A DNA stretch of 64,000 nt, from positions 245,892 to 309,891 of the forward strand of contig CAJQIG010000001.1 of the NCBI GenBank assembly GCA_905478415.1, given 5' to 3'. The position numbers were made by a program, and so were the translations under genes. Each line of letters starts with the position of its first letter. Within the stretch, counting starts at the first letter, position 1. The notes beneath the pieces were generated by a model, which saw nothing but the letters and a program-made list of their open reading frames with translations, was not told the DNA's origin and made no database searches. The DNA comes from an uncultured Patescibacteria group bacterium. GTDB lineage: Bacteria > Patescibacteriota > Microgenomatia > UBA1400 > PJMF01. Of this stretch, positions 9,456 to 38,051 are shown piece by piece.

Positions 9456-9527
9456 GGCCCCATCGTCTAGTGGTTAGGACATCAGGTTCTCATCCTGGTA
9501 ACCGCAGTTCGATTCTGCGTGGGGTCA
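9456..9527 (+). tRNA. tRNA-Glu (anticodon CUC), 72 nt plus a genomically encoded CC
   Basis: Hand-folded cloverleaf: acceptor GGCCCCA/TGGGGTC (one G-U pair); D-stem GTCT/GGAC; anticodon stem TCAGG/CCTGG with loop TTCTCAT (U33, anticodon CTC, A37); T-stem CGCAG/CTGCG with T-loop TTCGATT; discriminator A. Confidence 0.85.
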
Positions 9528-11047
9528 CCTAAAGCGACACCCTGTGTATTAAAGTTGAATATTGACTTATACATAGGGTTTATTTCAGGGTTCAATGTAC
9601 CGTTAAAGTCATACGTGATTCCATTTGGGAAGATTGAACCAATTAGGGCCTTTATCTGAGGCACTGTAGATCTTTTATAGGTAGCTCCTAAATCACCCAA
9701 TGTCTCTTTTATAAAATCTGAGAGCTTGTGAATGTCATATTTTTCAAGTGTTGAGTTTGATTTAGCAACGTGTGCCTTTTGAAGGTTCTTTTCAATCAAG
9801 GCGTTTTGCTCCATAAATATTTCATCCGTATAAACTCCCATCATATTTTTTTGTACGAGAACTTTTCTCATATCCTTAAGCCTTTCTATTTCACTATCTG
9901 CTACATTTTTAGCCTTCTTAAAATTTTTTAGTCGTTTCTCATATTCTTCAACTACATATTGTGAAAACAACTCTATACATTCTTTACTTGGAGATATTGT
10001 TTGTAATAATCTAACTACTTCTTCATCGAGTTTTTCTGCTCTAATTGATGCTGTATGGCACTTAGAGGAACATCGGTAGTATGGATAATCCTTACTTCTA
10101 CCTTTACTCCAACCAGCAGTTATTCCTTTTCCACATTCTGCACATTTAATAATTCTCCTTAAAGGAAAAACTTTATTATTTCGAACTCTTTTAATATTAA
10201 CTACAGGTTTGTTTACACATCTACCATCTAAAGCGTTCTGAACTTTGTAAAACTGCTCTAATGAAATCATTGGTCTGTGTTGCCCTTGAACTTCTTCTTT
10301 GTAAGTAGCTGAAGTTAAAACCCCTGCATAAAATTTATTTCTAAGCATTCTCTGAACTGTTGGAACTTTTAACTTTATTTCCTTGCCTTTATATATTGTA
10401 TGTAAACCCATCTCATTCATTATTTTTGTAATTTCAATAAGACTTGTATTTCCAATTGCCATCAAGTCCCACGCATGAATCATCTTGTCCCAACTTTCAG
10501 GATCTTCTATAGGAAATTTATTAGCATCCATTTTGTAACCAAGTGGAGGCTTTCTTGTAATTAAGCCTGATTTAAACCGAGCATACATACCATTTCTAGT
10601 TCTCTCACTACGTACGTCATTATCATGCTGGGCAAAACTTGCCATGATAGTTTCAAGCAAAGTATCAGTGGGAGACGTTCCAGTAGGCTCTGAGGCTGAA
10701 AGAAGCTTAATATCATAACTAATTAGGCTCTTACGTATTGATAGATAATCAGAAGTTTGGCGAGATAATCGATCAAGCCGATAAATGATTACTGACCCGA
10801 GTGTCCTTTTGTTTTTTTTACAATATTGAAGTAATTCAACTAAGACAGGTCTACCTGTAATTGTTTTAGCTGATTTACCTTCTTCTCTAAAGACTTTTAC
10901 AACACGATAGCCTTTTCTTATTGCCTCTTTTCGACATAAGTCTTCTTGAGTATCAAGTGAAAAATTATCTACCTGTTCTTCAGTGGAAACACGAAGATAA
11001 ATAATTGCATCTGTTTTAGTATTGTTGTCTTGATTTTTTCTAGTCAT
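9482..11047 (-). CDS. Large serine recombinase (integrase of the TnpX/TndX/phiC31 class)
   Basis: N-terminal resolvase catalytic domain (IYLRVSTEEQ, catalytic Ser, DRLSRQ), a recombinase domain, and a zinc ribbon CAECG...YRCSSKCH with a coiled-coil tail. The last roughly 15 codons overlap the tRNA-Glu 3' half (GDPTQNRTAVT is the reverse complement of the T-arm/acceptor). Confidence 0.9.
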   Translation of the reverse strand: MTRKNQDNNTKTDAIIYLRVSTEEQVDNFSLDTQEDLCRKEAIRKGYRVVKVFREEGKSAKTITGRPVLVELLQYCKKNKRTLGSVIIYRLDRLSRQTSDYLSIRKSLISYDIKLLSASEPTGTSPTDTLLETIMASFAQHDNDVRSERTRNGMYARFKSGLITRKPPLGYKMDANKFPIEDPESWDKMIHAWDLMAIGNTSLIEITKIMNEMGLHTIYKGKEIKLKVPTVQRMLRNKFYAGVLTSATYKEEVQGQHRPMISLEQFYKVQNALDGRCVNKPVVNIKRVRNNKVFPLRRIIKCAECGKGITAGWSKGRSKDYPYYRCSSKCHTASIRAEKLDEEVVRLLQTISPSKECIELFSQYVVEEYEKRLKNFKKAKNVADSEIERLKDMRKVLVQKNMMGVYTDEIFMEQNALIEKNLQKAHVAKSNSTLEKYDIHKLSDFIKETLGDLGATYKRSTVPQIKALIGSIFPNGITYDFNGTLNPEINPMYKSIFNFNTQGVALGDPTQNRTAVTRMRT

Positions 11048-11237
11048 AACTGCGTTGATTCAATAATTCATCAATCGTCTTACCTTCAAACATTTCTTTT
11101 TCAAAATCATCTAACCAGCTAGTTGCCAAAAACTTAATTTCAACAACAACATCTTGTAATACTTCTTGAGTAATTGGTGATTTATCACCTATCTGAGTAT
11201 GGGAGTTTTTCTGTAATTCTTCTCTATAATCTTGCAT
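11040..11237 (-). CDS. Small acidic protein (65 aa) translationally coupled to the serine recombinase; candidate recombination directionality factor or regulator
   Basis: ATG at 11237 with an AAGG 7 nt upstream. Its stop overlaps the recombinase ATG by 8 nt. No recognisable domain. The longer ORF call reaching 11300 has no SD and overlaps the promoter repeats. Confidence 0.4.
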   Translation of the reverse strand: MQDYREELQKNSHTQIGDKSPITQEVLQDVVVEIKFLATSWLDDFEKEMFEGKTIDELLNQRSYD

Positions 11238-11262
11238 TTTCAACCTTATTTCAACTATCCAT

Positions 11263-11294
11263 ATACGGTTAGTATATATACTAATACGGATAGT
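11263..11294. promoter_or_regulatory. Two direct repeats ATACGG(T/A)TAGT spaced 21 bp apart in the divergent int / T4CP intergenic region; candidate operator
   Basis: The 11-mer at 11263-11273 is repeated at 11284-11294 with a single mismatch, bracketing a TATATATAC -10-like element. Confidence 0.35.
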
Positions 11295-11310
11295 TGTCAA
11301 GGGTAATTTA

Positions 11311-11339
11311 TTGCTAAATACCAGAGGTTAGGGTATACT
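11311..11339 (+). promoter_or_regulatory. Sigma70-like promoter for the T4CP gene (TTGCTA - 17 nt - TATACT)
   Basis: -35 at 11311-11316 and -10 at 11334-11339 with a 17-nt spacer, about 35 nt upstream of the ATG at 11374. Confidence 0.45.
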
Positions 11340-11373
11340 CCAACTCAATTAGTCTGCCCAAAGAAAAAAGGGT

Positions 11374-13965
11374 ATGTCTATTGATTTAACCTCAATACAA
11401 TTAAAACTTCCTACCAAATACATTCCATCAGTTAATTGGTCTCTCATCTTATCGTTTTTAGTTCCCACCTTTTTAATATTATTTTTTATAGTAATTATTT
11501 TCCTTTCTATCAGGTCATACTTAATCTACCAAGTAATAAAATCTCCTCACACACTCCTAGAAATAAAACCTCCTAAAGAAACAGAGCAAAGTCCATACTC
11601 AACTCAACAACTTTTTAATTTATTCCATAGCATTGCTAATCAAAAATCTTTTATTGAGAGGTTATTTAAAATTAAACAGCCACTCTCATTTGAAATAGTA
11701 TCTACAAAAGAAGATGGAATTCGTTATGTAATCCGAGTCAAAAGTGATCTGGCTAGTTTAGTTAAAAACAGCTTAATATCTTATCTCTCAGGAATTGAAG
11801 TTAAAACTACCAGTGAGTATCTTGAATCAGATAATCTCAAGACAACCATTAGTGAACTAAGACTTTCAAATAATTTTGTTCTACCACTCAAAACTCATGA
11901 AACATTAGAAAAGAATGATCCTATTGCTTACCTCACTGGAAACATGACTAAATTAAAACCTAGTGATTTAATGGTTTATCAAGTTATAGTAGCTCCCGTT
12001 AGTAAAAAATCTATTCCAGAGGTTTCTAGAATTTCCAAACTTATTGCTTCTAAAAAAGATTTGAAATCAAACATAAATAAGCAATTTTCACTCTTTGGTT
12101 ACCTACATATTTTTATTGGTTTAGTTTTACAAATAGTACTTCTACCAATTGGCATACTAGTTTTTATTGCCACTGATGGCAAAGAAGGACCACTACTTTC
12201 ATTGCCACTAATAACTGAAAAAATAGGAAACTCTAATCCATATCAAAGTGAAATGGAAAGTCTAATAAAACAAAAACTAGATCAACAATTATTCTCAGTT
12301 TCAATCAGAGTGTTAACTCACTCTAAATCAAAGAAACGACATAAGGGTTTTCTTTCTTCACTAACTTCAATGACAAATACTCAGTATCAATCACTAAAGC
12401 TAATATTCAAGCCAAACATAAAAATAATCAAACAACTTAAGTTCTACTTATTCAGAAATAGATTTATACTCCCACTAAACAAAACCATTCTTTCCTCCTC
12501 AGAGCTTGGAGATCTATATCATTTTCCATTTACCAGAACTACCAAAACAGAAGACATGCAGAAACAATTTAGTAAAGAGCTTCCTGCACCTCTATCACTA
12601 AAGAAAGCTCATAAGTTAGATATTACTTTTGCTAAAAACACTTACGGAGGTGCTATTACAGCAATAGGACTAACTGAAGATGAACGAAGACGGCACATGT
12701 ACATCTTGGGAGCCACAGGAACAGGTAAATCTACCATGCTTCTATCTATGATTAACTCTGACCTTAAAAATAATAAAGGCTTAGCAGTACTTGATCCTCA
12801 TGGAGATTTAATTGAAGAAATTTTAAATATTATTCCAGAAAATAGAATCAAAGATGTTGTTTATTTTAACCCCGATGATATTGCTTATCCTATTGGAATC
12901 AACTTACTGGAATTATCTAAAGGCTTAAGTGATGATGAGGCTCTAAGAGAAAAAGAATTTGTAACTGAAAGTATTATTTCTCTATTTCATAAAGTATATG
13001 GTGAAAAATATTCTGGACCAAGATTAGAGTATATTTTAAGAAATGCTATTCATACAGCTTTTACAGTACCAGGTGCTACCTTATTTACTGTTAACAAACT
13101 TCTTATAAATACCAAGTTTAGAAAGTCAGTTGTTAAAAACTTAGATGATGAAAACTTAAAAGAATTCTGGAAACAAGAGTTTGCAAAAGCAGGTGACTAT
13201 CAAAAAGTTAAAATGATTCTGCCTATCACTAACAAAATTGGTAGGTTCTTATTTTCTCCAACTGCTAAAAGAATTTTAGAACAAGAAAAATCTACTATCG
13301 ACTTTGATGAAATAATGAACGAGGGTAAGATCTTACTTTGCAATTTATCTAAAGGAAAGATTGGAGAAGATAATTCTAAAGTACTTGGTATTGTTATTAT
13401 GGCAAAACTACAGTTAGCTTCTTTAAAACGAGCTAGAATACCTGCAGATAAAAGAAAAGATTTTTATCTCTATGTTGATGAATTTCAAAACTTTGCTACA
13501 GAATCATTTGCTCAAATACTCTCAGAAGCTAGAAAGTATAAGCTTGGTGCTATTCTGGCTCATCAAACAACTTCACAACTAGAAGATAAATCATTAGTTA
13601 ATGTGACATTGGCAAATACTGGTACAGTAATTTGTTTTAGAACTGCTAACCCTGAAGATGAAAAATTAATACTGCCCCAGTTTAGACCATATGTAGAACA
13701 AGGAGAGATTGCTAGTTTACCTTCGTACAGGTTCTACATGAGACTAGGTGCTCTTAATCCTGAAGCTCCTTTCTCTGGGATTACTATGCCTGTGGAAATT
13801 AAACAAAATAAAGAACTTGTTCAAAAGGTTGTTGAGTCTTCTAGAAAGAAATATGCTATTAAGTATGTTGAGCCAACTAAAAATCAAAAGAGTTATAGAT
13901 ATACACCAAATATTAAAAAAAATACTAAACTAAAAGAAAATACTGGATATTCTATATTACCCTAA
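11374..13965 (+). CDS. Type IV secretion coupling protein (VirD4/TraG/TraD-like P-loop ATPase) with an N-terminal membrane anchor
   Basis: N-terminal TM helices (LILSFLVPTFLILFFIVIIFLSI), Walker A YILGATGTGKST, and Walker B DFYLYVDEFQNF. Size is 863 aa. Confidence 0.8.
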   Translation: MSIDLTSIQLKLPTKYIPSVNWSLILSFLVPTFLILFFIVIIFLSIRSYLIYQVIKSPHTLLEIKPPKETEQSPYSTQQLFNLFHSIANQKSFIERLFKIKQPLSFEIVSTKEDGIRYVIRVKSDLASLVKNSLISYLSGIEVKTTSEYLESDNLKTTISELRLSNNFVLPLKTHETLEKNDPIAYLTGNMTKLKPSDLMVYQVIVAPVSKKSIPEVSRISKLIASKKDLKSNINKQFSLFGYLHIFIGLVLQIVLLPIGILVFIATDGKEGPLLSLPLITEKIGNSNPYQSEMESLIKQKLDQQLFSVSIRVLTHSKSKKRHKGFLSSLTSMTNTQYQSLKLIFKPNIKIIKQLKFYLFRNRFILPLNKTILSSSELGDLYHFPFTRTTKTEDMQKQFSKELPAPLSLKKAHKLDITFAKNTYGGAITAIGLTEDERRRHMYILGATGTGKSTMLLSMINSDLKNNKGLAVLDPHGDLIEEILNIIPENRIKDVVYFNPDDIAYPIGINLLELSKGLSDDEALREKEFVTESIISLFHKVYGEKYSGPRLEYILRNAIHTAFTVPGATLFTVNKLLINTKFRKSVVKNLDDENLKEFWKQEFAKAGDYQKVKMILPITNKIGRFLFSPTAKRILEQEKSTIDFDEIMNEGKILLCNLSKGKIGEDNSKVLGIVIMAKLQLASLKRARIPADKRKDFYLYVDEFQNFATESFAQILSEARKYKLGAILAHQTTSQLEDKSLVNVTLANTGTVICFRTANPEDEKLILPQFRPYVEQGEIASLPSYRFYMRLGALNPEAPFSGITMPVEIKQNKELVQKVVESSRKKYAIKYVEPTKNQKSYRYTPNIKKNTKLKENTGYSILP

Positions 13966-14980: not shown

Positions 14981-15751
14981 ATGGATACTACAATCACTCC
15001 AAAACAACTTGAAATCCTCATACTCATATATCGTTTCCGTTTCCTAAACAGAACTCAAGTACAAACACTCCTTAATCATAAAGACCCCAAACGAATAAAT
15101 ACCTGGCTCAAAGATCTAACTGATAAAAATATCCTCGGTAGAATCTATTCAACAAAGATAAAAGAAAACACCAAGCCAGCGATATATTACCTTGCTACTA
15201 AATCTAGAAAAATATTACTAGAACAACCAAATACTCACGAAAAGACTTTAAACAGAGCCTACAGAGATAAAAATGCCTCTCAGAAACTAATAGAGCACTC
15301 TGTTTTTACAGCTTCAATCTATTTACTACTTAAACAACAAGCCAAAGAAACAGAAACTAAGCTTAACTTTTTTACAAAGACTGATCTAAAAACTCACTAC
15401 TATCTGCCATACAAAAGACCTGATGCTTATATTGCCCTTGAAAAAGATAATCAAATAAAAAGATATTTTCTTGAAATTATTGATGAGGGTACTCCTCGGT
15501 TTATGATTAGGAAAAAAATATCACAGTATATTGAGTACTTTGATGAAGAAATATGGACAAACAGAACTTTACACGATAACCCTTCCTTACTATTCATTTG
15601 CCCAAACCATAACACTAAAGTCTTTCTCTATAAACACATTGCACAAGTCTTGGAGGAAGAGACTTCAGATTTACAATTTTTTTTAAGTCTAAAGTCAGAC
15701 ATTCAAGCCGAGGGTATTACTGCTAATACTTGGAAACTTGTTATGGAATAA
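14981..15751 (+). CDS. Replication-relaxation (Replic_Relax) family protein; putative relaxase-like DNA-processing protein of the element
   Basis: Pattern LEILILIYRFRFLNRTQVQTLL...KRINTWLKDLTDKNIL...AIYYLATKSRKIL...HSVFTASIYL...PDAYIALE...YFLEI matches PF13814-type proteins found with monoderm T4SS. Confidence 0.55.
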   Translation: MDTTITPKQLEILILIYRFRFLNRTQVQTLLNHKDPKRINTWLKDLTDKNILGRIYSTKIKENTKPAIYYLATKSRKILLEQPNTHEKTLNRAYRDKNASQKLIEHSVFTASIYLLLKQQAKETETKLNFFTKTDLKTHYYLPYKRPDAYIALEKDNQIKRYFLEIIDEGTPRFMIRKKISQYIEYFDEEIWTNRTLHDNPSLLFICPNHNTKVFLYKHIAQVLEEETSDLQFFLSLKSDIQAEGITANTWKLVME

Positions 15752-15758: not shown

Positions 15759-16685
15759 TTACCAAAATTTCCCTAAAACTCTTTGATAAACTCTGTATGG
15801 TTTTGGACCTACTAAAGCTTTACCATTGATAAAGATTGTAGGTGTACCGTAGATTTCTGTAGCACGCACTTGTTCAAATTGGTCATCAACTATTTTTTGA
15901 GTTTCTTCACTAGCTACACATACTTGTAGTTTGTCAATATCAAGTCCCACTTCTACTGCAACTTTATCTACATATTCATTGTTAGCAACATCCTCCTTAC
16001 TTGAAACAAACAATTTGTCGTTGAACAGCCAAAGTTTTTCTGGATCCTGCAGGTTGGCGCAGTAAACGTAGTTGGATATATATGAGGTTTCCTCTTTAAC
16101 AGGGAAATGAATAAAAGTATAGTTAAATTCGTAGTTATCTTGCAATTTTTGTATCAACGGGTAGGCTTTGCGAGTATAGTCACAGTTATAACAACCAATA
16201 AATATTAAGCTATCTTCTGAGTTGACATCCTTGGTGGGGTATTCACTCAAGCTGAGAGCTGTTAAATCTAAGTTACTTTCTGAGGGAGGATTTAAACTAC
16301 AACTATCATCAACTTGAGAAATCTTGTTGTTTTCTCCACTAGGATCAAAGGCGCAAAAACCAGATTCATTCAATCCATTGCAACTGCCATACATATAAAA
16401 ATTATATCCTCCCCTTAACACCCAAAGGCTGCTACTCAAGAGTAGTATAAAGAAAACCCACGATACTATTTCAAAGTGTTTGTTGAGTAGCTTTGCCACA
16501 AACTCAGATCTATTTAATAGTTTGCCAATGATCTTTCCCTTTATCTTTGTATCAAAGCCTGTGTTACAAGGACGCAGTGTCACCCTTCTAAAAACACAGT
16601 CAAAAGCCTCTTTGGCCAGCTGTCTGTGACTAGCACTAAAGATGCCTAAAATAGAAAATACGATTAAAGCAAGTAGACAAAACAT
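15759..16685 (-). CDS. Membrane-anchored thioredoxin-fold protein, DsbA-like (CxxC = CYNC)
   Basis: N-terminal TM segments followed by a thioredoxin-like domain with IGCYNCDYTRKAYP and a cis-Pro region GTPTIFINGK. Confidence 0.55.
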   Translation of the reverse strand: MFCLLALIVFSILGIFSASHRQLAKEAFDCVFRRVTLRPCNTGFDTKIKGKIIGKLLNRSEFVAKLLNKHFEIVSWVFFILLLSSSLWVLRGGYNFYMYGSCNGLNESGFCAFDPSGENNKISQVDDSCSLNPPSESNLDLTALSLSEYPTKDVNSEDSLIFIGCYNCDYTRKAYPLIQKLQDNYEFNYTFIHFPVKEETSYISNYVYCANLQDPEKLWLFNDKLFVSSKEDVANNEYVDKVAVEVGLDIDKLQVCVASEETQKIVDDQFEQVRATEIYGTPTIFINGKALVGPKPYRVYQRVLGKFW

Positions 16686-16692
16686 AATTGAT

Positions 16693-17907
16693 TCAAGTTA
16701 AAAGCTTAACAGTCCTTTGTAAATTAGTAATAAACATTTCTACTTCCTCAAGAGTATTATAAAAATAAAATGATACTCTAGCTGAAGCTTGGATGTTGTG
16801 AGCATGAAACCAGGAATGAACACAGTGTTGACCAGAACGGATCATAATATTGGACGACTCATCTAAGATGAGAGCGATTTGGTGTGGGTCCACACCTTTA
16901 ACATAAAAAGACACTATCCCACCTCGTAAAGCAGGATCGCTGGGACCAATAATTGTGGTATTAGGCAGTTTTTCAATTTCCTTGGTGACAAACCTATTTA
17001 GTTTTTTCTCTTGCTTGGCTATATTCTCCAACCCGATTTTATCTAAATATTTAACGGCCGCTCCTAATCCAATAATCCCAGCGTAATTTTGTAGCCCCGC
17101 CTCAAACTTTTCTGGCAAAGGTAAAAATTTATGATCTTTGTAAGTGGAGTATTCCACTGTATCGCCACCTACCATAAATGGTTCCAACTCTTCTAAAAGT
17201 TTATATTTGCCATAAAGCACACCCGTACCTGATGGACCCAACATTTTGTGTCCAGAAAAAGCTAAAAAGTCTACATCTAGCTTTCTGACATTTATTTGTT
17301 GATGAGGTATTGCTTGAGCAGCATCTAACAAAACTTTACCACCATGTCTATGGGTAATCTTGATGATCTCTAAAGCGGGAATGGTTACTCCGTCTAAGTT
17401 TGAAGTCAAGACCATGGAAACGAGCTTTACTTTCTCATCTACCATCTCTGTAAAAGCCTCTAAGTCAAAGGTATTATCTTTTTTTGAAGGAACGATCTTG
17501 TGGATAATACCAATTTTTTGAGCTAGTCTCTGCCAAGGAACTAGGTTAGAGTTATGTTCTTTGTCGGTGGTAATAACTACATCGCCTGCTTTTAACCCCA
17601 AAGAGTGAGCAACTAAATTTATCCCCTCGGTGGTGTTTCTGGTAAAGATAATCTCCTCCCTCCTTTTAGCGCCAATAAAATCAGCAACTAGTTTTCTGGC
17701 TTCATCACATTTTTTAGTCACCAGCTCTCCCAGTTTATGCACACTCCGTCCAGCACAGGCCGGATACTCCCGGTAATACTGATTGACAGCCTCAATGACC
17801 GATAAAGGTCGTAGTGTCTGGCAGGCATTGTCAAAATAGACGACAGGCTTACCTTTTATGCCCTTTTGTAATAAAGGAAAATCTTGTTTAAATTTTTGAA
17901 TATCCAT
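16693..17907 (-). CDS. sufS: Cysteine desulfurase (class V aminotransferase, SufS/NifS family)
   Basis: PLP-lysine motif FSGHKMLGPSGTGVLYGK and the active-site Cys loop RSGQHCVHSWF. Confidence 0.8.
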   Translation of the reverse strand: MDIQKFKQDFPLLQKGIKGKPVVYFDNACQTLRPLSVIEAVNQYYREYPACAGRSVHKLGELVTKKCDEARKLVADFIGAKRREEIIFTRNTTEGINLVAHSLGLKAGDVVITTDKEHNSNLVPWQRLAQKIGIIHKIVPSKKDNTFDLEAFTEMVDEKVKLVSMVLTSNLDGVTIPALEIIKITHRHGGKVLLDAAQAIPHQQINVRKLDVDFLAFSGHKMLGPSGTGVLYGKYKLLEELEPFMVGGDTVEYSTYKDHKFLPLPEKFEAGLQNYAGIIGLGAAVKYLDKIGLENIAKQEKKLNRFVTKEIEKLPNTTIIGPSDPALRGGIVSFYVKGVDPHQIALILDESSNIMIRSGQHCVHSWFHAHNIQASARVSFYFYNTLEEVEMFITNLQRTVKLLT

Positions 17908-17913
17908 AATATT

Positions 17914-19878
17914 TTATCCTTTTTCAAAGTGAAACAGCCTTAAGCTATTCAAAACAACTAAAATAGCCACTCCTGAATCAGCGCCAATAGCATACTCTAG
18001 ATGAGTAAAGCCAAAAATAGCTAAAAGCAGAAAAACCGCCTTTACTCCCAAAGCGGCGGTGATATTTTGCTTAATGGTGGCCATAGTTTTTTTACCCAAA
18101 TTCAAGCTGTAGGGGATATTAAGAAGGTTGTTATTCATAAGGGCAATGTCGGCCGTTTCAATGGCTACATCAGCTCCATCAACACCAATAGCAATACCAA
18201 CAGTCGCTGTTGCCAGTGAAGGAGCGTCGTTGACACCATCACCGACCATAGCCACACTGCCAAACTCTTGTTTCATCTCTTCTATTTTGGTTAGTTTTTC
18301 GTCAGGTAAAAGCGAGGCATAAACCTTGTTTAGTCTTAGAGTTTTGGCAACGAAATCAGCTGCATATTGATTGTCTCCGGTCAGCATGACTGAGCGAATG
18401 CCCAATCTCTTTAATTTTTTAATAGTTTGACTTGCCTGTGGGCGGATCTTATCCGAAATAGCCAAAGCTCCCATGACTTGTTTACCTTCACTAATCAACA
18501 CCACTGTTTTACCTTCCTTCTCCAGACTTTCTGTTTTTTGTAGAATTTCCTTGGTAGAAACACCGTGATCTTCAATAAGTTTTAGATTACCAACACAATG
18601 TTCAATATCACTACAGACTAAGCAAGTGGCCTTACCGCCTTTGCCGGCTACGTTTTGAAAATTATCCATTGCATGTGGAGTGATTCCTTTTTCTTGGACA
18701 AAGTCTAAAATAGCTTTTGCCAAAGGGTGTGAAGAAAACTTTTCAATACCAGCAGCATCAGCTAAAACTTCCTCTTCAGAATAACCATTGAAAGTAACTA
18801 CATCGGAGACATAAGGCTCTCCTAGTGTCAGGGTTCTGGTTTTGTCAAAAGCCACTGCTTTGATTTTACTCAAGGCCTCCAAGAAGCGCCCACCTTTAAT
18901 CAGGACTCCTTTTTTGGACGCGCCACCAATGGCAGAGGCGATAGAAACAGGTGTGGAAATAACTAAAGCGCAAGGACAAGCAATCACTAACAACACCAAG
19001 GCTCGATATAACCAATCGTTAAAATCAGCACCAAAAAATAAAGGAGGGATTATGGTGATCATAATAGCTACCACCACTACAGTAGGAGTATAGTATTTGG
19101 CAAAACGGTCAATAAATTCCTGCGCTGGAGCACGAGAAGCTTGGGCTTGCTCAACTAATTTGACGATTTTAGCAAAAGTGGAATCGCGGCTAACTTTAGT
19201 AACTTTGATTTCCAAATAACCATTCTGATTGAGAGTACTGGCAAAAACTATGTCCCCCTTAAGTTTGTCTTTAGGTACAGATTCACCAGTAATCGTCGCT
19301 TCATCAACAGCTGAAGAACCTTTAATCACCACTCCATCAAGAGGGACTAAGTCACCTGGGCGAACAATCACCACATCATTAACTTTCACTTTTCCAACTG
19401 ATACTTTATTACCATTTTTCAAAATAGCAATTTGAGGAGATTTTTTGACCAAGGCTTCAAGAGCACGCCTGGAGCGTTCAATGCCAAAGTCCTCAAACAT
19501 CTCAGCCAAAGAAAAGAAAAACACAACCGCCGCCGCCTCAGCTAACTGATTGATATAAATAGCACCAAAAGCAGCAACAGTGACTAAAAAATTGATATTT
19601 AAAAACTTTTGACTAAAAAGCCCCTTAAGTGCATCTTTTAGAACAAAGTAGCCACCAGTGACAATAGAAAGATAGTAAAACCAAGTAGCAATATCTTTTT
19701 GCCCAAAAACCCAAACTAAAATCAAACCAATTAAAAAGCTAACTCCAGATGCTGTAGTCAAAACACGCTTATTACCACCAAATAAAGAAAATATCTCTTG
19801 GGATCGAGAAACTTGAGATTGTTTCTTATTCAAATCATCACAGTGATTACAGTTAGTTTTATGTTTTTGTTTTGCCAT
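17914..19878 (-). CDS. cadA: P1B-type heavy-metal ATPase (Cd/Zn/Pb-type, TM6 CPC motif)
   Basis: TGES, ACPCALVISTP, DKTRTLT, MLTGDN and VAMVGDGVNDAPSL motifs. No long HMA domain, only CNHCDD at the N-terminus. Confidence 0.85.
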   Translation of the reverse strand: MAKQKHKTNCNHCDDLNKKQSQVSRSQEIFSLFGGNKRVLTTASGVSFLIGLILVWVFGQKDIATWFYYLSIVTGGYFVLKDALKGLFSQKFLNINFLVTVAAFGAIYINQLAEAAAVVFFFSLAEMFEDFGIERSRRALEALVKKSPQIAILKNGNKVSVGKVKVNDVVIVRPGDLVPLDGVVIKGSSAVDEATITGESVPKDKLKGDIVFASTLNQNGYLEIKVTKVSRDSTFAKIVKLVEQAQASRAPAQEFIDRFAKYYTPTVVVVAIMITIIPPLFFGADFNDWLYRALVLLVIACPCALVISTPVSIASAIGGASKKGVLIKGGRFLEALSKIKAVAFDKTRTLTLGEPYVSDVVTFNGYSEEEVLADAAGIEKFSSHPLAKAILDFVQEKGITPHAMDNFQNVAGKGGKATCLVCSDIEHCVGNLKLIEDHGVSTKEILQKTESLEKEGKTVVLISEGKQVMGALAISDKIRPQASQTIKKLKRLGIRSVMLTGDNQYAADFVAKTLRLNKVYASLLPDEKLTKIEEMKQEFGSVAMVGDGVNDAPSLATATVGIAIGVDGADVAIETADIALMNNNLLNIPYSLNLGKKTMATIKQNITAALGVKAVFLLLAIFGFTHLEYAIGADSGVAILVVLNSLRLFHFEKG

Positions 19879-20254: not shown

Positions 20255-20345
20255 CTACTCATATGTATTTATGTTACTACAGCGTAGGGGAAGTGTCAAA
20301 CTAATATCGGGAGAGATAAGAAGTAGCCTTATTTCACACAAGTAA

Positions 20346-21086: not shown

Positions 21087-21088
21087 AA

Positions 21089-28303: not shown

Positions 28304-28895
28304 AATTAGCTCTCGGAACCAAATTGCTATCAAAGAGGTACGTGATGGAATTTTAGTTTTACCTAACAACAAGCATCGTTTAATTATTGAAACCTCATCG
28401 GTAAACTTTGAGCTCAAAAGTGAGGTTGAACAAGATGTGCTGATTGATAGCTTTCAGACCTTTCTAAACTCATTGCCTAGCCAACTTCAAATCTTGATTC
28501 GTATTCGTGAAGTTGATATTGATCAGTATGTTGACTCTATCGAAATACTAAAACAAACAGAAAACAATCCCAAATATTTGGAACAAATTGATGACTACAC
28601 CCAGTTTATTAGGCAACTTGTATCTGGAAATAAAATATTATCTCGAAAATTCTATATTGTGCTCCCATATAAACCAAATAATAACAAAAACGCCTTTGAT
28701 CTTGCCAAAACACAACTAACTTTGACACAAGATATGGTGATAAAAGCTTTAGAAAAACTAGGCATGAAAGCTAGAACTCTAAGTAGTCTAGAAGTACTCA
28801 ACCTCTTCTATAGTTTTTATAACAAAGACCAAATCAAAACTCAGGAACTTAATCAAACAATTATGAAATCACTTTTACAACATAACTATGTTTAA
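28275..28895 (+). CDS. VirB4/TrbE-family ATPase, N-terminal segment (206 aa) as a separate ORF
   Basis: Perfect SD AAAGGAGGA 5 nt upstream. Sequence IKEVRDGILVLPNNKHRLIIETSSVNFELKSEVEQDVLIDSFQTFLNSL matches the N-terminal region of monoderm VirB4 (PrgJ/TraE-like). Ends with a TAA that overlaps the next ATG (ATGTTTAA). Confidence 0.6.
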   Translation: MWLLKKSLNKISSRNQIAIKEVRDGILVLPNNKHRLIIETSSVNFELKSEVEQDVLIDSFQTFLNSLPSQLQILIRIREVDIDQYVDSIEILKQTENNPKYLEQIDDYTQFIRQLVSGNKILSRKFYIVLPYKPNNNKNAFDLAKTQLTLTQDMVIKALEKLGMKARTLSSLEVLNLFYSFYNKDQIKTQELNQTIMKSLLQHNYV

Positions 28896-30702
28896 CACTA
28901 TTCAAATAAACTACCAAAACTTACAAAAATGGAAATCTAAACGCCTGCGAAAATATCGTGCAAAACAAGAAAAAAAACGTAGAGAAAAACTTTCTCTACA
29001 ATTTAGTTTTGGCGAACAAGACCAAGTGGATATGATTTCGTACTCAGGACTTATGGAAGAGTCTACCTATGTACAAATTGGCGATACCTTTGTAAGAACT
29101 CTATTTATTTCAGGCTATCCTTATGTAGCTAATGTTGGTTGGCTGAATATGTTGATCAACTTTAATCATGACCTTGATATTTCATACCATATTGAACATG
29201 TTGATCCCTTAATGGCTCTGCCTAAACTAAATCGCAAAATCACAGAACTTGAATCCACTAAAAGAACCATGCTTAAGGCAGGAAAAGTAATTGGTTCTGA
29301 GATCACAGACCCACTTGAGTCTGCCATGGAGCTAAAAGATAAAATCCAACGAGGCCAGGAGAAACTCTTTCAAATTTCCATCTACATGACTCTGAGTGCC
29401 ACAAGTTTTGAAGAACTGAACAAGACTACTCAAGTTTTGGAAACAATCATGGCTTCTAGAATGTTTTATATCAAGTCTGCCACCTTTCAACAGCTTGAAG
29501 GTCTGCAATCTATTCTGCCACGAGGAGAAAATTTACTTAATCAAAAAAGAAATCTAGATAGTTCAAGCGCTGCTTTAACTTTCCCATTTGTTTCATCAGA
29601 ACTAGTCCAAGAATCTGGTATTTTGTATGGCATTAACAAATCAAATAACTCGTTGGTTATTGTTGACAGATTTTCTCTCAATAATGCTAACTCAATTATC
29701 TTTGCTCAATCAGGGAGTGGTAAAAGCTACATTGCTAAAGTTGAGATTTTAAGACAACTCATGCAACAAACCAAAGTCATAGTGATTGACCCAGAGCGAG
29801 AATACAAACAGCTAGCAAAATCTATTGGTGGTACTTATATACGAATGTCAGCAACTTCAAAAGAAAAAATTAACCCTTTTGATTTTTCACTCAAGACTGT
29901 AACAGGACAAAATGGTCTTGCCGAACACATCCAAGATCTAACCGAGATTATTTCCCTGATGGCAGGCTCACTATCTGATGAAGAGCGAGCTGTGGTAGAT
30001 AAAGCCTTGATAAAAACATACAAACAGTTTGGCATCACCATGCGTAAACAAAAATATGAGGGGAAAATAAAATTTCCACTGTTAAAAGACTTTTATAAAA
30101 CGCTTAAAGCCATGAAACAAAAAGATCTATGCCACAGACTAGATAAGTTTGTGACTGGTTCACTATCTAGTGTATTTACCTCCCAAACCAACGTAGACCT
30201 CTCAAACCGACTTGTTGTCTTTGATATCAAAGATCTAGATGAATCCTTGAGACAAATCATGATTTTAGCCACTGCTAACTTTGTACACTCAGAGGTTAAA
30301 TCAAATCCTCAAAAACGAATCCTCGTGATCGATGAAGCTTGGTTGCTATTGCAACACGAAGAAAGTGCTCGGTTTTTAGCAGGCTTAGTAAGACGTGCTC
30401 GTAAACATTACTTAGGTGTCACTCTAATTTCCCAGCAAGCAAACGACTTTTTAAATCAAGAATATGGTAGAGCCATTGCCTCACAATCATCACTAAGAAT
30501 ATTGATGAAACAGGACACTACTTCTATCAAGAAAGTTGTCCAAGAGTTCAACTTAAGTGAATATGAACAGCAATTTTTACTAACCTGTGATCGAGGTGAG
30601 GCTCTAATTATTGCAGACCAAAATCATGTGGCGGTAAAAATTATAGCTTCTAAAAAAGAACACCCAATGCTTACCACTGATCCGAAAGACTTATACTTAT
30701 AA
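28888..30702 (+). CDS. VirB4/TrbE-family conjugation ATPase, C-terminal 604 aa with Walker A and B motifs
   Basis: Walker A FAQSGSGKSY and Walker B RILVIDEAWLL, plus the conserved middle region (FISGYPYVANVGWLNMLINFNHDLDISYHIE). No SD precedes this ATG, which suggests a frameshift or split within one VirB4 gene. Confidence 0.85.
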   Translation: MFNTIQINYQNLQKWKSKRLRKYRAKQEKKRREKLSLQFSFGEQDQVDMISYSGLMEESTYVQIGDTFVRTLFISGYPYVANVGWLNMLINFNHDLDISYHIEHVDPLMALPKLNRKITELESTKRTMLKAGKVIGSEITDPLESAMELKDKIQRGQEKLFQISIYMTLSATSFEELNKTTQVLETIMASRMFYIKSATFQQLEGLQSILPRGENLLNQKRNLDSSSAALTFPFVSSELVQESGILYGINKSNNSLVIVDRFSLNNANSIIFAQSGSGKSYIAKVEILRQLMQQTKVIVIDPEREYKQLAKSIGGTYIRMSATSKEKINPFDFSLKTVTGQNGLAEHIQDLTEIISLMAGSLSDEERAVVDKALIKTYKQFGITMRKQKYEGKIKFPLLKDFYKTLKAMKQKDLCHRLDKFVTGSLSSVFTSQTNVDLSNRLVVFDIKDLDESLRQIMILATANFVHSEVKSNPQKRILVIDEAWLLLQHEESARFLAGLVRRARKHYLGVTLISQQANDFLNQEYGRAIASQSSLRILMKQDTTSIKKVVQEFNLSEYEQQFLLTCDRGEALIIADQNHVAVKIIASKKEHPMLTTDPKDLYL

Positions 30703-31320
30703 ATGCATGCCATATTTACTGCACACACCATCTGGTCATTTAGAAAAGAACTTCAGTTTGTAGCTTTTGCCTTTTTAGTTTTAATTTCATTACCAATTAT
30801 TGCTGTAATTATTTTGACTCACACTGGAGTAAATATTGTTTCGGATGCTTTGATCGATGTTAATCCAGAATCTCAAACTATCCAAATTAAAAATCCAGCA
30901 GATGGAACAGTTGTAAAAGAAGTATCAAAGGAAGTGGCATGGCCAGTACAAGGTGTCACAACACTTGAGTTCGCCAAATCAAGTGGTTACCAAAAATTCC
31001 ATGCGGGAATAGATATTGCAAATTCACAAGGAAAAGTTGGTGATAAAATCACCCCATTTATGGAGGGAACTGTTATTTACGAAGGTGAAATATTTTGGGG
31101 TTATGGAAAACATGTGATTATTGATCATGGTGATAACATCACTTCTCTCTATGCTCATCTTAATAGAATTCAGGTTTTTAAAGGACAAAAAGTAAATGTG
31201 GGTGATACTATCGGAAATATGGGTAGCACTGGTTGGTCTACGGGGCCTCACTTGCATTTTGAGGTGAGGGTTTATGGGGTGCCGGTGAATCCGAAGGCGA
31301 TATTACAAGATACAAACTAG
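30703..31320 (+). CDS. M23-family (LytM-like) peptidoglycan endopeptidase with an N-terminal TM anchor; T4SS cell-wall hydrolase
   Basis: HAGIDIA ... GDTIGNMGSTGWSTGPHLHFEV, the HxxxD and HxH zinc motifs of peptidase M23. Confidence 0.85.
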   Translation: MHAIFTAHTIWSFRKELQFVAFAFLVLISLPIIAVIILTHTGVNIVSDALIDVNPESQTIQIKNPADGTVVKEVSKEVAWPVQGVTTLEFAKSSGYQKFHAGIDIANSQGKVGDKITPFMEGTVIYEGEIFWGYGKHVIIDHGDNITSLYAHLNRIQVFKGQKVNVGDTIGNMGSTGWSTGPHLHFEVRVYGVPVNPKAILQDTN

Positions 31321-35564: not shown

Positions 35565-35771
35565 ATGGCATCACAACAAAAATTCGGACAAAACTTAAGA
35601 GTAGCTAGAAAAAAAGCTAACCTTACCCAACAGCAAATAGCTGACAAAGCTAAAATGCATGTTAATTATTATGCTCGTATTGAGCGTGGTGGGGAAAATC
35701 CTTCTTATGAAGCTCTAGAAAAGATAATTAAGGCCTTAGGCATAAAATCTTCAGAAGTCTTACCATTCTAA
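35565..35771 (+). CDS. XRE-family helix-turn-helix transcriptional regulator (68 aa)
   Basis: LRVARKKANLTQQQIADKAKMHVNYYARIERGGENPSYEALEKIIKALGI is a canonical Cro/C1 HTH. Starts 12 nt after the STAND gene stop. Confidence 0.75.
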   Translation: MASQQKFGQNLRVARKKANLTQQQIADKAKMHVNYYARIERGGENPSYEALEKIIKALGIKSSEVLPF

Positions 35772-35974
35772 CTATCTCTAGTAACTTCACCATCATCAGA
35801 TACTTTTAATTTTCCTGACTTAAGGTCTTCATCTACTTTATCTACTAAAACACCAGCCAACTGCATTAAACCTTTGACTGTTTTGATAGCATTTTCACGA
35901 GTAGCTTTTTTTGGATCTTTTTCCTCAAGCATTTTTAATGCCTTTTGAATTTCTTCTTCTGTTGGTTTTCTCAT
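35768..35974 (-). CDS. Small charged hypothetical protein (68 aa)
   Basis: ORF convergent with the HTH gene, preceded by the palindrome at 35994-36006. Confidence 0.35.
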   Translation of the reverse strand: MRKPTEEEIQKALKMLEEKDPKKATRENAIKTVKGLMQLAGVLVDKVDEDLKSGKLKVSDDGEVTRDS

Positions 35975-35993
35975 TTTTTCTTTCTAAATGTGT

Positions 35994-36006
35994 TGATAGT
36001 CTATCA
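35994..36006. promoter_or_regulatory. Perfect 13-bp palindrome TGATAGTCTATCA; operator candidate
   Basis: TGATAG/CTATCA arms around a single T. Located 20 nt upstream of the minus-strand ATG at 35974 and downstream of the PLD gene. Confidence 0.35.
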
Positions 36007-36011
36007 TGAAA

Positions 36012-36467
36012 TTAAATAAATCTCTCGAGTTTTAGAAAATTAAACATCTTCTTAGCATGACCATCACCAATTATTCTACGCATAACTTCTTTACTATTAT
36101 TCTGTGAGAGTATATTTAAACTACCTTCCCACAAAACTTCTCTATCTATAATAGCTAACTTACGGTGATGATTATTTGTAGTTACAAAAACCTGCACACC
36201 AATTCTTTCAAAATATTCAATTACTTCTTCAGCTTGATACCTCATGTCTTTTAAATGTTTCTTTGGATCTCTGGTAATCACATATACCTTTACACCTTTA
36301 GAAATCAGTTTTTCAAAAACAGAACAAAGCTTGAGGGTTCTACCATTTGTAATAAATGGACTTTCAATCACGACTTCACGTTCTGCGTGAAGTAAATCTC
36401 TCTCAAACTGTTTATAAAAAGTTGTCTCGTCAAAAAGTGAAGTTTTAAACATTTTGTTTCTCCTCAT
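36012..36467 (-). CDS. Phospholipase-D-family nuclease (single HKD domain, Nuc/NucT-like endonuclease)
   Basis: HxK(x)4D motif in NNHHRKLAIIDREVLWEGSLN (H-R-K-L-A-I-I-D). Size is about 150 aa, like the pKM101 Nuc protein. Confidence 0.8.
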   Translation of the reverse strand: MRRNKMFKTSLFDETTFYKQFERDLLHAEREVVIESPFITNGRTLKLCSVFEKLISKGVKVYVITRDPKKHLKDMRYQAEEVIEYFERIGVQVFVTTNNHHRKLAIIDREVLWEGSLNILSQNNSKEVMRRIIGDGHAKKMFNFLKLERFI

Positions 36468-36485
36468 CTATCTTATCATTATATA

Positions 36486-36545
36486 TAAGACGCAGCCTCT
36501 CGAGGTTTTCAAGAAATGGTTCAAACTGAGTTACCTTAGGGTCAC
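36486..36545. repeat. 60-bp direct repeat, copy A (51/60 identical to copy B at 37803-37862); upstream element of the PLD nuclease gene
   Basis: TAAGACGCAGCCTCTCGAGGTTTTCAAGAAATGGTTCAAACTGAGTTACCTTAGGGTCAC. On the minus strand it carries a -35-like TTGAAA followed 18 nt later by TTATAT(ATAAT). Confidence 0.7.
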
Positions 36546-36594
36546 CAAAGGAGACCGTTCCAAAACTCAACAAATTAGATAAACGAGCAACTCT

Positions 36595-37653
36595 TTACTC
36601 AAAATGCTTTGTATAAAATTCAACTGTTCTCTGCATTGCTAAAGAAAAGCTAGGATCTTCTATATTGTGCCCACCATTTGGATATTCCCATAGTTCTATT
36701 TTAAGATTAGATTCTTTAGTTTTTTCTACTAAGTTTCTACTATATTCAATACTTACTACAGAGTCATTTACAGCATGATGAATCTGAATTGCGGAGTTGG
36801 AGTCTTTGAGGTATTCAATTGGCGACACTTCATTCCAGAATAAACTATCTGAAGAGAATGTTCCATGAATATCAAAAAGCCTTTCCCTTTCTTCTTTTTT
36901 ATTATAGTTAATATCTTGTTTAATATATGAACTATCATTGATAGCATAGTCTTTCATGTCTTGATATGTATACACTGCTCCAGCCCAAATAACACCAGTG
37001 GTAATTTCTGGTCTAGCTGCCATAGTTCTTGATACAATATTTCCGGCCATACTATGTCCCCACAAGCCAATTTTAGATGGATTTACAAAATCAGTTTGCT
37101 GTAAAGCAGTCTGAGCATTCATAACATCTCTAATATAGTCACTAGAATAATATGCTCCATGTGCGTCACCTTCAGATTCTCCATGACCACGCAAATCAAT
37201 TTTAAAAACTACAAAACCACTTCGTGCTAAATAATCAACGTACTCAACATATTTACTTAAAGTCTTATATTGATCTGGAGGAATGTATCCATGAATAAAA
37301 ATTATTGCAGGCCAACCATCACTGGGCTGTTCACCATCAGGAATCGTAAGCAATCCATCAATTTTAAAATCATCTGAAACATAGTTCGTTAAGTAACTAG
37401 TATACTTAGAATTTTGTGATATTTGGTCTAACTCTCCTAACTGACTCTCATAGTAGTACTTCCTCAGATAAGGAATCGTTAACTCCTCAAATGGAACAGT
37501 ATCTTGTACTAAATTTTGATTCGTAGTAAACTCAGTTTCACTTGATTTACTAGATATTTTAGAATTACTTTGATCAGTTCTTATAACAATCAAAAGAATT
37601 ATTGTAAAAATAAATAGAATAAAAATGAACATCAATACATATTTTTGTCTCAT
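36595..37653 (-). CDS. Membrane-anchored alpha/beta hydrolase (S9/dienelactone-hydrolase-like esterase or peptidase)
   Basis: N-terminal TM (LMFIFILFIFTIILLIVI). Nucleophile elbow GLWGHSMAGN (GxSxG), IIFIHGY, and Asp/His downstream (HHAVNDSV...GGHN). Confidence 0.75.
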   Translation of the reverse strand: MRQKYVLMFIFILFIFTIILLIVIRTDQSNSKISSKSSETEFTTNQNLVQDTVPFEELTIPYLRKYYYESQLGELDQISQNSKYTSYLTNYVSDDFKIDGLLTIPDGEQPSDGWPAIIFIHGYIPPDQYKTLSKYVEYVDYLARSGFVVFKIDLRGHGESEGDAHGAYYSSDYIRDVMNAQTALQQTDFVNPSKIGLWGHSMAGNIVSRTMAARPEITTGVIWAGAVYTYQDMKDYAINDSSYIKQDINYNKKEERERLFDIHGTFSSDSLFWNEVSPIEYLKDSNSAIQIHHAVNDSVVSIEYSRNLVEKTKESNLKIELWEYPNGGHNIEDPSFSLAMQRTVEFYTKHFE

Positions 37654-37802
37654 AATACATATTCTATAGTAATAGCATGAGAAATTACTGAGAACATCAT
37701 TGCTCTAGATACTATTTACAAACCTTTTCTATCATTAAAAAAACTTAACAATTAATAATTACTTGGAAAATAAAAATTTATTTGAATTTTTTTCACAATA
37801 TC

Positions 37803-37862
37803 TAAGACGTAGCTCCTCGAGTTTTTCTAAAAATGGTTCAAGCTGAGTTGCTTTAGGGTCAC
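37803..37862. repeat. 60-bp direct repeat, copy B; upstream element of the alpha/beta-hydrolase gene
   Basis: TAAGACGTAGCTCCTCGAGTTTTTCTAAAAATGGTTCAAGCTGAGTTGCTTTAGGGTCAC. 85% identical to copy A, in the same orientation and the same position relative to the downstream gene. Confidence 0.7.
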
Positions 37863-37871
37863 ACAATAAAA

Positions 37872-37897
37872 ATACACGCTACATGCGTGTTTTTTTA
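37872..37897. terminator. Bidirectional Rho-independent terminator-like hairpin (A-tract, ACACGC-TACAT-GCGTGT stem-loop, T7 tract)
   Basis: 6-bp GC-containing stem with a 5-nt loop, flanked by AAAAAT and TTTTTTT. Sits between the attR-side repeat and the hydrolase promoter. Confidence 0.5.
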
Positions 37898-38028
37898 TTG
37901 TTTGTTCTTGCAGTGGAAATTAATCACTGAACGTAGTGAAGTAGTTCTGCCACATGGTGAGTGACACCTGTCACGAACCAGGTTAATGCATGTGAGCGTC
38001 ATCAAGTAGATATAGATTGCAAATCGTA

Positions 38029-38051
38029 GATTCTGCGTGGAGTCACATAAA
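38029..38051 (+). repeat. attR-side direct repeat of the tRNA-Glu 3' end (displaced or decayed copy)
   Basis: See the mobile_element entry. The one mismatch would break acceptor-stem pairing, consistent with a non-functional remnant. Confidence 0.65.

Follow-up and report, generated by a model that had tools for sequence, protein, structure and literature searches.

The window analysed here is a 64,000-nucleotide stretch of a contig from an uncultured Patescibacteria group bacterium (CAJQIG010000001.1, assembly GCA_905478415.1). It contains an integrative and conjugative element (ICE)-like set of genes, which begins with the gene for a large serine recombinase (LSR), at the 3' end of a tRNA-Glu(CTC) gene. 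Our preferred interpretation, with a probability of about 0.6, is a tandem array of mobile DNA at this tRNA 3' end, composed of an intact LSR-driven ICE, an accreted cassette, and an older, decayed ICE. The main value of the finding is the pattern behind the locus, as the recombinase represents a large, so far undescribed family found nearly always at tRNA genes. No published description of this family was found; the search was not exhaustive, and an earlier description is possible.

The tRNA-Glu(CTC) gene is the only tRNA gene identified by ARAGORN in the whole window. The recombinase gene reads head-on into it, so that 15 codons and the stop overlap the tRNA in antisense; the stop codon (9482-9484) falls within the anticodon stem, and residues 510-521 (TQNRTAVTRMRT) are encoded, together with the stop, by the antisense strand of the host tRNA. 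Resolvase, Recombinase, and Zn_ribbon_recom domains identify the 521-aa protein as an LSR, and no Phage_integrase domain was detected by Pfam in the 9.5-38 kb region. In an alignment of 40 homologues, the catalytic S21 (in YLRVST), R19, and R90/R93, as well as the zinc-ribbon cysteines C302, C305, C326, and C330, are invariant. The best NCBIfam matches include CcrB and CcrC (E about 1e-25, far below the cut-off), and the closest annotated LSR in plasmid and phage recombinase collections is at most 28% identical. The gene content makes the element a credible ICE: an integration module at the junction end, a coupling protein, a Replic_Relax protein as candidate relaxase, VirB4, and other mating-pore genes; as cargo it carries Avs2 and genes for metal resistance. 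In these respects, namely the ICE-like element at the tRNA 3' end, the serine (not tyrosine) recombinase, and its antisense C-terminal codons, the first-pass annotation of this DNA holds; the boundaries and the mechanism that it gave need correcting.

The overlap with a tRNA, overlooked there as a trait of the whole recombinase family, was evident already from the proteins. More than 100 homologue clusters (identity 51-96%) were found, and the C-terminal tails of homologues resemble translated antisense tRNA (e.g., ...GDPTGNRTPVTRMKTWCPNH and ...GAGDGNRTRDLLLGKETLYH). For the family survey, 81 loci were fetched (loci are designated below by L numbers), 40 members were aligned, and ARAGORN was run on the loci; 47 loci counted as evaluable, namely those where the conserved ...SP[IL]Y motif could be placed with at least 125 nt after it. 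An antisense tRNA was present in 43 of the 47, its 3' end lying 37-40 nt past the conserved Tyr codon in every one of the 43. The targets comprise 13 anticodon types: Glu (CTC, TTC), Leu (GAG, CAG, TAG, TAA), Gly (GCC, CCC, TCC), His, Met, and Ser (GGA, TGA); a looser tRNA scan adds Ile, Lys, Phe, and Ser (GCT). Among 100 sufficiently long homologue tails, 80 carry the T-loop signature, and approximately 11 more stop, as judged by eye, at the T-loop, which makes roughly 91 of 100 tRNA-like. Even the "invariant" R513 of the 40 aligned recombinases is accounted for in this way, because its codon is the antisense of the universal T-loop. Since the distance to the tRNA is fixed family-wide, the P' half of attP falls within the terminal ~40 nt of the recombinase coding sequence.

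Five family members (L108, L122, L160, L172, and L178) have no adjoining tRNA, and we read their junctions as attP-like sites within arrays. In the three alignable cases (L108, L122, and L178), divergence from the nearest tRNA-abutting relatives begins 5-8 nt into the acceptor strand; L108 and L172 carry TAAGGGTCACC and TTAGAGTCACC, respectively, at the acceptor-strand breakpoint. L108 was also considered as an excised circle, an option dropped because the DNA downstream of it differs in GC content and is devoid of ICE genes; it is kept as an attP-like or array junction only. A search for direct repeats of tRNA 3' ends in other family loci was likewise abandoned, as the 10-kb flanks were too short and the matches were only T-loop similarities or unrelated relics. 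One such locus, L152, has a tRNA-Leu 3'-half-like relic (about 11900-11960) approximately 5.5 kb to the host side of its recombinase-occupied tRNA-Leu.

The right end of the element was located by comparison with two sister elements readable at both ends. The first (L106/L210 and L207; L210 and L207 lie on one contig, ERZ27332993 k141_698902) is about 29.8 kb long, and the second is represented by L107 and L195 (GCA_964620965.1). All three ICEs occupy a tRNA-Glu(CTC) gene in a syntenic neighbourhood, and their cargo is unlike while the element ends are conserved. Their right ends have in common a motif of ~72 bp ending in ...CTGAGTTACCTTAGGGTCAC or ...TTAGGGTCAC: to the left of the final C, at least 24 nt are identical in the three ICEs, and to the right of it three unrelated continuations follow. 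The motif matches the tRNA solely in GGGTCAC(C), 7-8 bp that make up the acceptor 3' strand with the discriminator (9522-9529). In the window the motif occurs twice, as copies m1 and m2 flanking a hydrolase gene. In L195 two copies (16833-16904 and 17991-18062) flank a Fic gene, and the L207 copy (15205-15280) abuts the 3' end of a gene for a different LSR of 597 aa, whose TGA stop lies inside GGGTCAC. In L207 (15277-19366) this second recombinase gene is followed by a tyrosine integrase gene; the region represents another, unrelated element that has accreted at this site in the sister genome. On its minus strand the 72-bp motif shows a promoter-like TTGAAA-N19-TATATA, noted by eye.

When m2 is joined to the sequence that follows the tRNA core, the rebuilt attP reads GCTTTAGGG-TC-ACCTAAAGC and is palindromic, with 10 of 12 inner matches (reached by 7e-5 of other centres in the element) and 15 of 28 overall (0.25%). 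Serine integrases require a non-palindromic central dinucleotide, and a 2-bp overlap suffices for them. A quasi-palindromic attP with a non-palindromic central TC and a short identity to attB is seen here in the reconstructed attP, not in an observed one. The sequence CCAAAGG... directly after copy m1 makes up a second palindrome with it; therefore, the hydrolase cassette looks like a recombinase-less element accreted at the site, and the likely right ends are 36545 and 37862, with the cassette between them. Finally, the window and L106, whose elements are 94-96% identical, differ by 6% over the last 300 nt of the recombinase gene and at 3 of 12 positions of the T-loop/T-stem 3' strand. Because each of these three changes is exactly compensated on the 5' strand, the T-arm behaves as host DNA.

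The right-end motif, the attP palindrome, the breakpoints of the atypical members, and the T-stem changes together point to a crossover most likely at or near T71-C72, presumably at the dinucleotide TC at 9525-9526. With such a crossover the element would supply only the discriminator and the trailer, while the tRNA-Glu promoter and all but the last few bases of the gene would be host-derived. The first-pass annotation had the element supply the tRNA 3' half, which disagrees with a T-stem that varies with the host and with family breakpoints within the acceptor strand.

In the array that we propose, the only intact member would be an ICE that extends from about 9525 to 36545 and measures about 27 kb; with the hydrolase cassette included (to 37862), it would measure 28.3 kb. 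Its LSR would recombine an attP of the form ...GAGTT(A/G)C(C/T)TTAGGG-TC-ACCTAAAGCGACACC... with the end of the acceptor stem, ...GCGTGGGG-TC-A..., the two sites having only the 7-8 bp GGGTCAC(C) in common. As the 3' end of the recombinase gene contains the P' half-site, integration would leave this gene pointing head-on into the tRNA, and its terminal residues and stop would come from the tRNA antisense strand. In the excised circle, the reading frame would continue through attP into the opposite terminus of the element, gaining a conserved tail of ~30 aa. Transfer would depend on the element's own coupling protein, the MOBC-type Replic_Relax protein, and a minimal monoderm-type type IV secretion system (T4SS). 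Present-day excision would yield an empty attB TTCGATTCTGCGTGGGGTCACACAATAAAAATACACGC and an attP GAGTTGCTTTAGGGTCACCTAAAGCGACACCC (through m2) or GAGTTACCTTAGGGTCACCTAAAGCGACACCC (through m1), centred on GCTTTAGGGTCACCTAAAGC. A bidirectional intrinsic terminator just outside the m2 core is probably the ancestral tRNA trailer (B'); an Rfam search of 37700-38300 gave no tRNA and no other credible family.

The boundaries given in the first-pass annotation were based on the 23-mer GATTCTGCGTGGGGTCACCTAAA at 9511-9533, which contains the T-loop 3' half, T-stem 3' strand, acceptor 3' strand, discriminator, CC, and four trailer bases. Its copy at 38029-38051, in direct orientation and 21/23 identical, is real: none of 100 shuffled windows had two matches to the 23-mer, and the window has no further copy with up to 3 mismatches, including near the 62-kb GC boundary. 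One mismatch (G to A at 38041, tRNA position 69) would indeed disrupt the acceptor-stem pair C4-G69, as had been stated; the other (C to A at 38047) lies past the discriminator. If these repeats were the attL and attR of one element at 9511-38051, with a crossover in the T-loop/T-stem, excision would join 38028 to 9511 as GCAAATCGTA-GATTCTGCGTGGGGTCACCTAAAGC and leave the empty site CGCAGTTC-GATTCTGCGTGGAGTCACATAAATCC, and the predicted junctions would be attB CGCAGTTCGATTCTGCGTGGAGTCACATAAATCCCC and attP GCAAATCGTAGATTCTGCGTGGGGTCACCTAAAGCG.

We consider this possibility unlikely, even though the repeat is far beyond chance, encloses every ICE gene, and has both mismatches in its 3' part, as expected with a crossover near the left edge. 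Its ungapped likeness also runs on for 27 nt beyond the 23-mer, where 15 of 27 positions resemble the P' region, a score equalled at 69 of 104,746 other positions (p about 7e-4). The left arm of the distal copy, GATTCTGCGTG, is, however, the host's own T-stem strand, that is, of tRNA type (B) and unlike the conserved element end. Since an attR needs an element-type P arm, the repeat is probably not the attR of this recombinase. Moreover, the homology of the three ICEs ends 166 bp earlier, at GGGTCAC; the sister ICEs end at their own 72-bp motif, with no T-arm repeat in the flanking DNA obtained; the T-stem 3' strand behaves as host DNA, and the family breakpoints lie in the acceptor strand. 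Nor is a long repeat needed, as serine recombinases require just a 2-bp overlap, which has been reported for Tn4451 (PMC5704250). A crossover at the T-loop "GA" was considered at first, since the repeat starts there, and was rejected because the distal left arm is B-type and the breakpoints are in the acceptor strand. In the array that we favour, the distal repeat would be an attB-like site or an old attL remnant, a leftover B-type site at the edge of the older decayed ICE.

It is also quite unlikely, in our estimation, that the locus is a fixed chromosomal island. Such a reading agrees with the published view of Patescibacterial T4SSs as mostly relaxase-less and chromosomal (PMC12102498), and with the same tRNA being occupied in a syntenic neighbourhood in three genomes. 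It agrees as well with the state of the same-species contigs in public assemblies (consensus contigs), found by exact-protein matches of MsrB, the recombinase, the right-flank 427-aa protein, and the 68-aa protein of the helix-turn-helix (HTH) gene. All of these contigs (22 with the recombinase, 23 with the right-flank gene, and 23 with the HTH gene) are integrated; no empty site, circular junction, or junction variant was found among them, so that the comparison with related genomes by which the first-pass annotation expected to find an empty tRNA-Glu gene produced none. A search of genome contigs with the flanking msrB gave only distant MsrB proteins (up to 67%) from unrelated phyla, and contigs with a near-identical major facilitator superfamily gene extend in the wrong direction.

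A fixed island is, however, difficult to reconcile with a backbone that is 92-98% identical between genomes whose flanks are 33-46% identical. In the first sister, the recombinase, coupling protein, 273-aa open reading frame (ORF), Replic_Relax protein, pilins, and VirB4 are 92-99% identical to those of the window, and the M23 hydrolase, PrgI, 206-aa ORF, HTH protein, and phospholipase D (PLD)-like protein 87-96%; in its host flank, the S49 peptidase is 45.6% and a large surface protein 33% identical. In the second sister, the backbone is 69-93% identical and the neighbouring msrB 56%. The VirB4 is 92-98% identical to proteins labelled Pacebacteria or Woesebacteria, and the best non-self relative of the host housekeeping gene at 62187..63032 (from Candidatus Pacebacteria and other Patescibacteria) is 65% identical. 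As the element is far more conserved than the host flanks, it must have moved horizontally and recently between hosts, to judge from these identities. The backbone ORFs of the ICE are all intact, the cargo differs between sisters while the ends are conserved, and arrays with different neighbours are found at the same core, all of which speak against fixation.

The first-pass annotation also overlooked low-GC, ICE-cargo-like DNA reaching about 62.1 kb. This 38-62 kb island has a second copper/redox cluster. Its genes include a second multicopper oxidase and P-type ATPase, DsbD/DsbA/M56/BlaI genes, DUF1573 proteins, and a two-component system; they are collinear with the cargo of the first sister (L210/L207), to which they also correspond in orientation, at 50-91% amino acid identity. 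The collinear set comprises the multicopper oxidase, a small ORF, and the P-type ATPase; DsbD, DsbA, M56, BlaI, and a second DsbD; and two DUF1573 proteins with a response regulator. No backbone remnants (recombinase, coupling protein, T4SS) were found in the island; our reading is that a second ICE from this family has decayed there. That the whole low-GC region of 9.5-62.1 kb is one composite ICE moving as a unit, its internal sites vestigial, appears very improbable: the GC content is low up to about 62.1 kb and the cargo at 38-62 kb is typical of the family and correctly oriented, but near 62.1 kb neither an att-like core nor a P-arm motif nor a tRNA fragment is present, the boundary being only a terminator between convergent genes (about 62.14-62.19 kb), and the sister ICEs are about 30 kb long and end at the motif.

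Several observations weigh against the tandem array as we propose it. First, the 21/23 repeat lies only 166 bp past the proposed end, and simple accretion leaves its origin unexplained; nor does simple accretion account for a full tRNA with an intact ICE 166 bp upstream of a partial tRNA. Second, the DNA to the right of m2 is of only putative host origin. Third, a 7-bp direct repeat is by itself meaningless, and support for the core comes from three ICEs together with a small number of atypical junctions; the T-stem argument is statistically weak as well (3 of 12 against a 6% background, p about 0.03). Fourth, the Replic_Relax protein has no NCBIfam match, its relaxase label being based on Pfam alone. 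Finally, neither an empty site nor a circular junction occurs among the same-species contigs, and the predicted attP-form recombinases, sought in three versions in a collection of 15 billion proteins, were not found.

These attP forms follow from the reading frame. In the integrated state the protein ends in ...GDP-TQNRTAVTRMRT, whereas the same frame across the rebuilt attP gives ...GDP-KVTQFEPFLENLERLRLIYNDKIDEEKQNV (m1) or ...GDP-KATQLEPFLEKLEELRLRYCEKNSNKFLFSK (m2). The minus strand of m1 thus prolongs the recombinase frame as KVTQFEPFLENLERLRLIYNDKIDEEKQNV followed by a stop, which shares nucleotides with the probable start codon of the PLD-like gene at 36452. The tail frame is open in five motif copies, and the m1-type peptide is kept in L195 and L207 with synonymous changes, including exchanges between CTT and TTA. 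This suggests that the excised form may make a longer protein and that integration may swap the tail. A search with the 33-aa tail against cluster representatives returned only ORF calls of 38-63 aa; the sensitivity of this search is low, as any attP-form protein would be concealed within a recombinase cluster.

A broader model can be built on this, which we put forward tentatively and regard as more doubtful than probable. It posits a patescibacterial family of tRNA-dedicated serine integrases with attP inside the 3' end of their own gene, in which the conserved ~30-aa C-terminal tail, whose codons continue through attP into the element's opposite end, would be traded on integration for one read from tRNA antisense. 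The exchange would serve as a read-out of the integration state, e.g., in the control of direction or stability, and "chromosomal" T4SS clusters would then be true conjugative elements. In SSV1-type archaeal integrases and in mycobacteriophage integration-dependent immunity, attP likewise lies within a gene of the module and integration alters the C-terminal end; the integrases are tyrosine integrases. SSV1 integration splits the integrase gene into two large parts, whereas here the difference is confined to the final 12 residues in the integrated form or about 30 in the excised form, and any role of the tail is hypothetical. Since the gene spans its own attP, a C-terminus dependent on the integration state could be a simple switch.

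The locus combines traits of several known systems. As in SCCmec/Ccr, an LSR places an island right at the 3' terminus of a conserved housekeeping gene (rlmH/orfX in that case) without inactivating it, and successive elements stack at one site, leaving rows of att-like sites; the differences are the tRNA target, the presence of the element's own conjugation genes, and the overlap of the recombinase gene with the att site. Serine-recombinase ICEs and integrative and mobilizable elements of Firmicutes (Tn5397/TndX, Tn4451/TnpX, streptococcal rumA etc.) are similarly conjugative or mobilizable, with short att identity and a monoderm-type mating pore, but use protein-coding or many sites, and none is reported in tRNA genes. 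Islander-class islands of tyrosine integrases resemble the locus in the tRNA 3' end target, the integrase gene at the tRNA-proximal junction, accretion arrays, and a displaced tRNA fragment. They are defined by a tRNA, a fragment, and a tyrosine integrase; here tRNA and fragment are present, the recombinase is of another family, and the proposed identity block is 7-8 bp at positions 68-74 and not the tRNA 3' half. The Patescibacterial T4SS clade related to MPF-FATA (PMC12102498) also has VirB4, pilins, a PrgI-like protein, and an M23 hydrolase; in our case the cluster is part of a delimited element that also encodes a recombinase, a coupling protein, and a MOBC-type protein.

Serine recombinases with tRNA targets are nearly absent from the literature; the first-pass annotation had called serine-integrase ICEs that target and reconstitute a tRNA with so long a repeat uncommon. 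The Islander study (PMC4383910) states that serine integrases are not known at tRNA genes, Mageeney et al. 2020 (PMC7192596) list 14 candidate cases of 297 and call for experimental proof, and Durrant et al. 2022 (PMC10083194) report protein-coding targets only, with tRNA unmentioned. The 2025 survey of Patescibacterial T4SSs (PMC12102498) describes them as chromosomal with few relaxases, favours a non-conjugative role, and mentions neither recombinases nor tRNAs. While tRNA genes are regarded as a preserve of tyrosine integrases, here one serine family is found at at least 13 anticodon types with a fixed geometry. The family offers many natural attB/attP pairs and a test case for target choice between integrase families; furthermore, a Patescibacterial T4SS cluster inside a delimited element conserved across genomes makes conjugation in uncultured tiny-genome bacteria directly testable.

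Table 1. Features of the tRNA-Glu(CTC) locus (window coordinates)
Feature	Position	Strand	Evidence and remarks
tRNA-Glu(CTC), integration target	9456..9529	+	ARAGORN; orthologous tRNA likewise occupied in L106/L210 and L107
Large serine recombinase, 521 aa	9482..11047	-	Pfam PF00239 (E 2.3e-32), PF07508 (E 1.9e-10), and PF13408 (E 3e-10), the last two above gathering
Proposed att core GGGTCAC at attL	9522..9528	+	Only sequence in common with the right-end motif; dyad centre of rebuilt attP; breakpoints of non-tRNA members
Small ORF, matching no family, candidate directionality factor	11040..11300	-	8-nt overlap with recombinase start
Type IV coupling protein	11374..13965	+	Pfam TrwB_AAD_bind, T4SS-DNA_transf, TraG-D_C; NCBIfam TraD-like below cut-off; 92% identical in L106
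Replic_Relax (PF13814), MOBC-type candidate relaxase	14981..15751	+	Pfam E 1.3e-13, above gathering score
Cargo: two DsbA-like proteins, cysteine desulfurase, two P-type ATPases, two ArsR, multicopper oxidase, DUF302	15759..25743	-	Pfam
Mating-pore genes: pilin, 433-aa pilin-domain protein, PrgI/VirB3-like, 206-aa VirB4-N-terminal-like, VirB4, M23 hydrolase	26120..31320	+	Pfam, NCBIfam; 87-99% identical in L207
Avs2 (AVAST type 2) anti-phage protein, 1402 aa	31344..35552	+	PADLOC, NCBIfam
Right-end module: HTH protein (+), 68-aa ORF (-), PLD-like nuclease (-)	35565..36467		Pfam; 79-95% identical in L195 and L207
Motif m1, proposed P arm and core GGGTCAC (36539-36545), right end of ICE proper	36473..36546	+	Left side identical in three ICEs, right sides differ
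Putative accreted recombinase-less cassette: P'-like stub, alpha/beta hydrolase gene (36595..37653), motif m2	36547..37862	-	
Motif copy m2	37790..37862		Core 37856-37862
Bidirectional intrinsic terminator just outside m2 core	37874..37890	.	2 terminator-like sites against 0.4 expected
Distal repeat, tRNA-Glu fragment from T-loop to 3' end, degenerate core GAGTCAC (38040-38046)	38029..38051	+	
Low-GC island, cargo only	38052..62140	.	GC 0.29-0.40 against 0.40-0.47 in flanks; Pfam

The small ORF upstream of the recombinase gene keeps its position in L001-L015, L106, and L107 (64-86 aa in the relatives) and matches nothing in Pfam or NCBIfam; its role as a directionality factor is conjectural. 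The 273-aa ORF lies between the genes for the coupling protein and the Replic_Relax protein, and PF13814 corresponds to the MobC/MOBC relaxase superfamily in the classification of PMC5357655. Of the genes listed by the first-pass annotation as bracketed by the repeats, the coupling protein, Replic_Relax, two T4SS_pilin proteins, PrgI (VirB3-like), VirB4, and M23 hydrolase are present, but no VirB6-like protein, nor a VirB8-like one, was recognised in Pfam and NCBIfam scans of the element. The similarity of the 206-aa ORF upstream of VirB4 (28275-28895, plus strand) to VirB4-like ATPases (CD1110 family, TrsD) is confined to their first ~180 residues; VirB4 appears to be divided between two genes.

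The 1402-aa ORF encodes Avs2 and no part of the secretion system, as seen from a full-length match to Avs2 profiles: PADLOC PDLC02164 gives E 2.5e-303, PDLC02162 spans residues 5-1390 (E 1.5e-217), and the NCBIfam score is 767 bits, under the 1000-bit equivalog cut-off. At the same position, L207 (12465-14297) has an AriA/OLD/GajA-like ATPase and L195 small ORFs; this part of the ICE backbone, flanked by the M23 hydrolase and HTH genes, thus resembles a slot for exchangeable defence genes. The start of the PLD-like gene (36012-36467, minus strand) is likelier at 36452, which gives 146 aa as in L017 and L195 and is preceded by a GAGGAG ribosome-binding site, than at 36467.

Within the low-GC island, the cluster at 38299-44239 encodes an Ea47-like 427-aa protein, a GNAT protein, a nucleoside deoxyribosyltransferase-HTH fusion, a NUDIX protein (weak PADLOC match to PDC-S07), and a phosphoribosyltransferase (PRTase)-like protein, and may be a defence or nucleotide-modifying islet. 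The host flank to the left of the tRNA includes the gene of a 2107-aa beta-helix/Ig-repeat surface protein (628-6951, minus strand), about 33% identical in the sister genome, and, at 8324-9345 (plus strand), two msrB paralogues, one with an N-terminal membrane segment.

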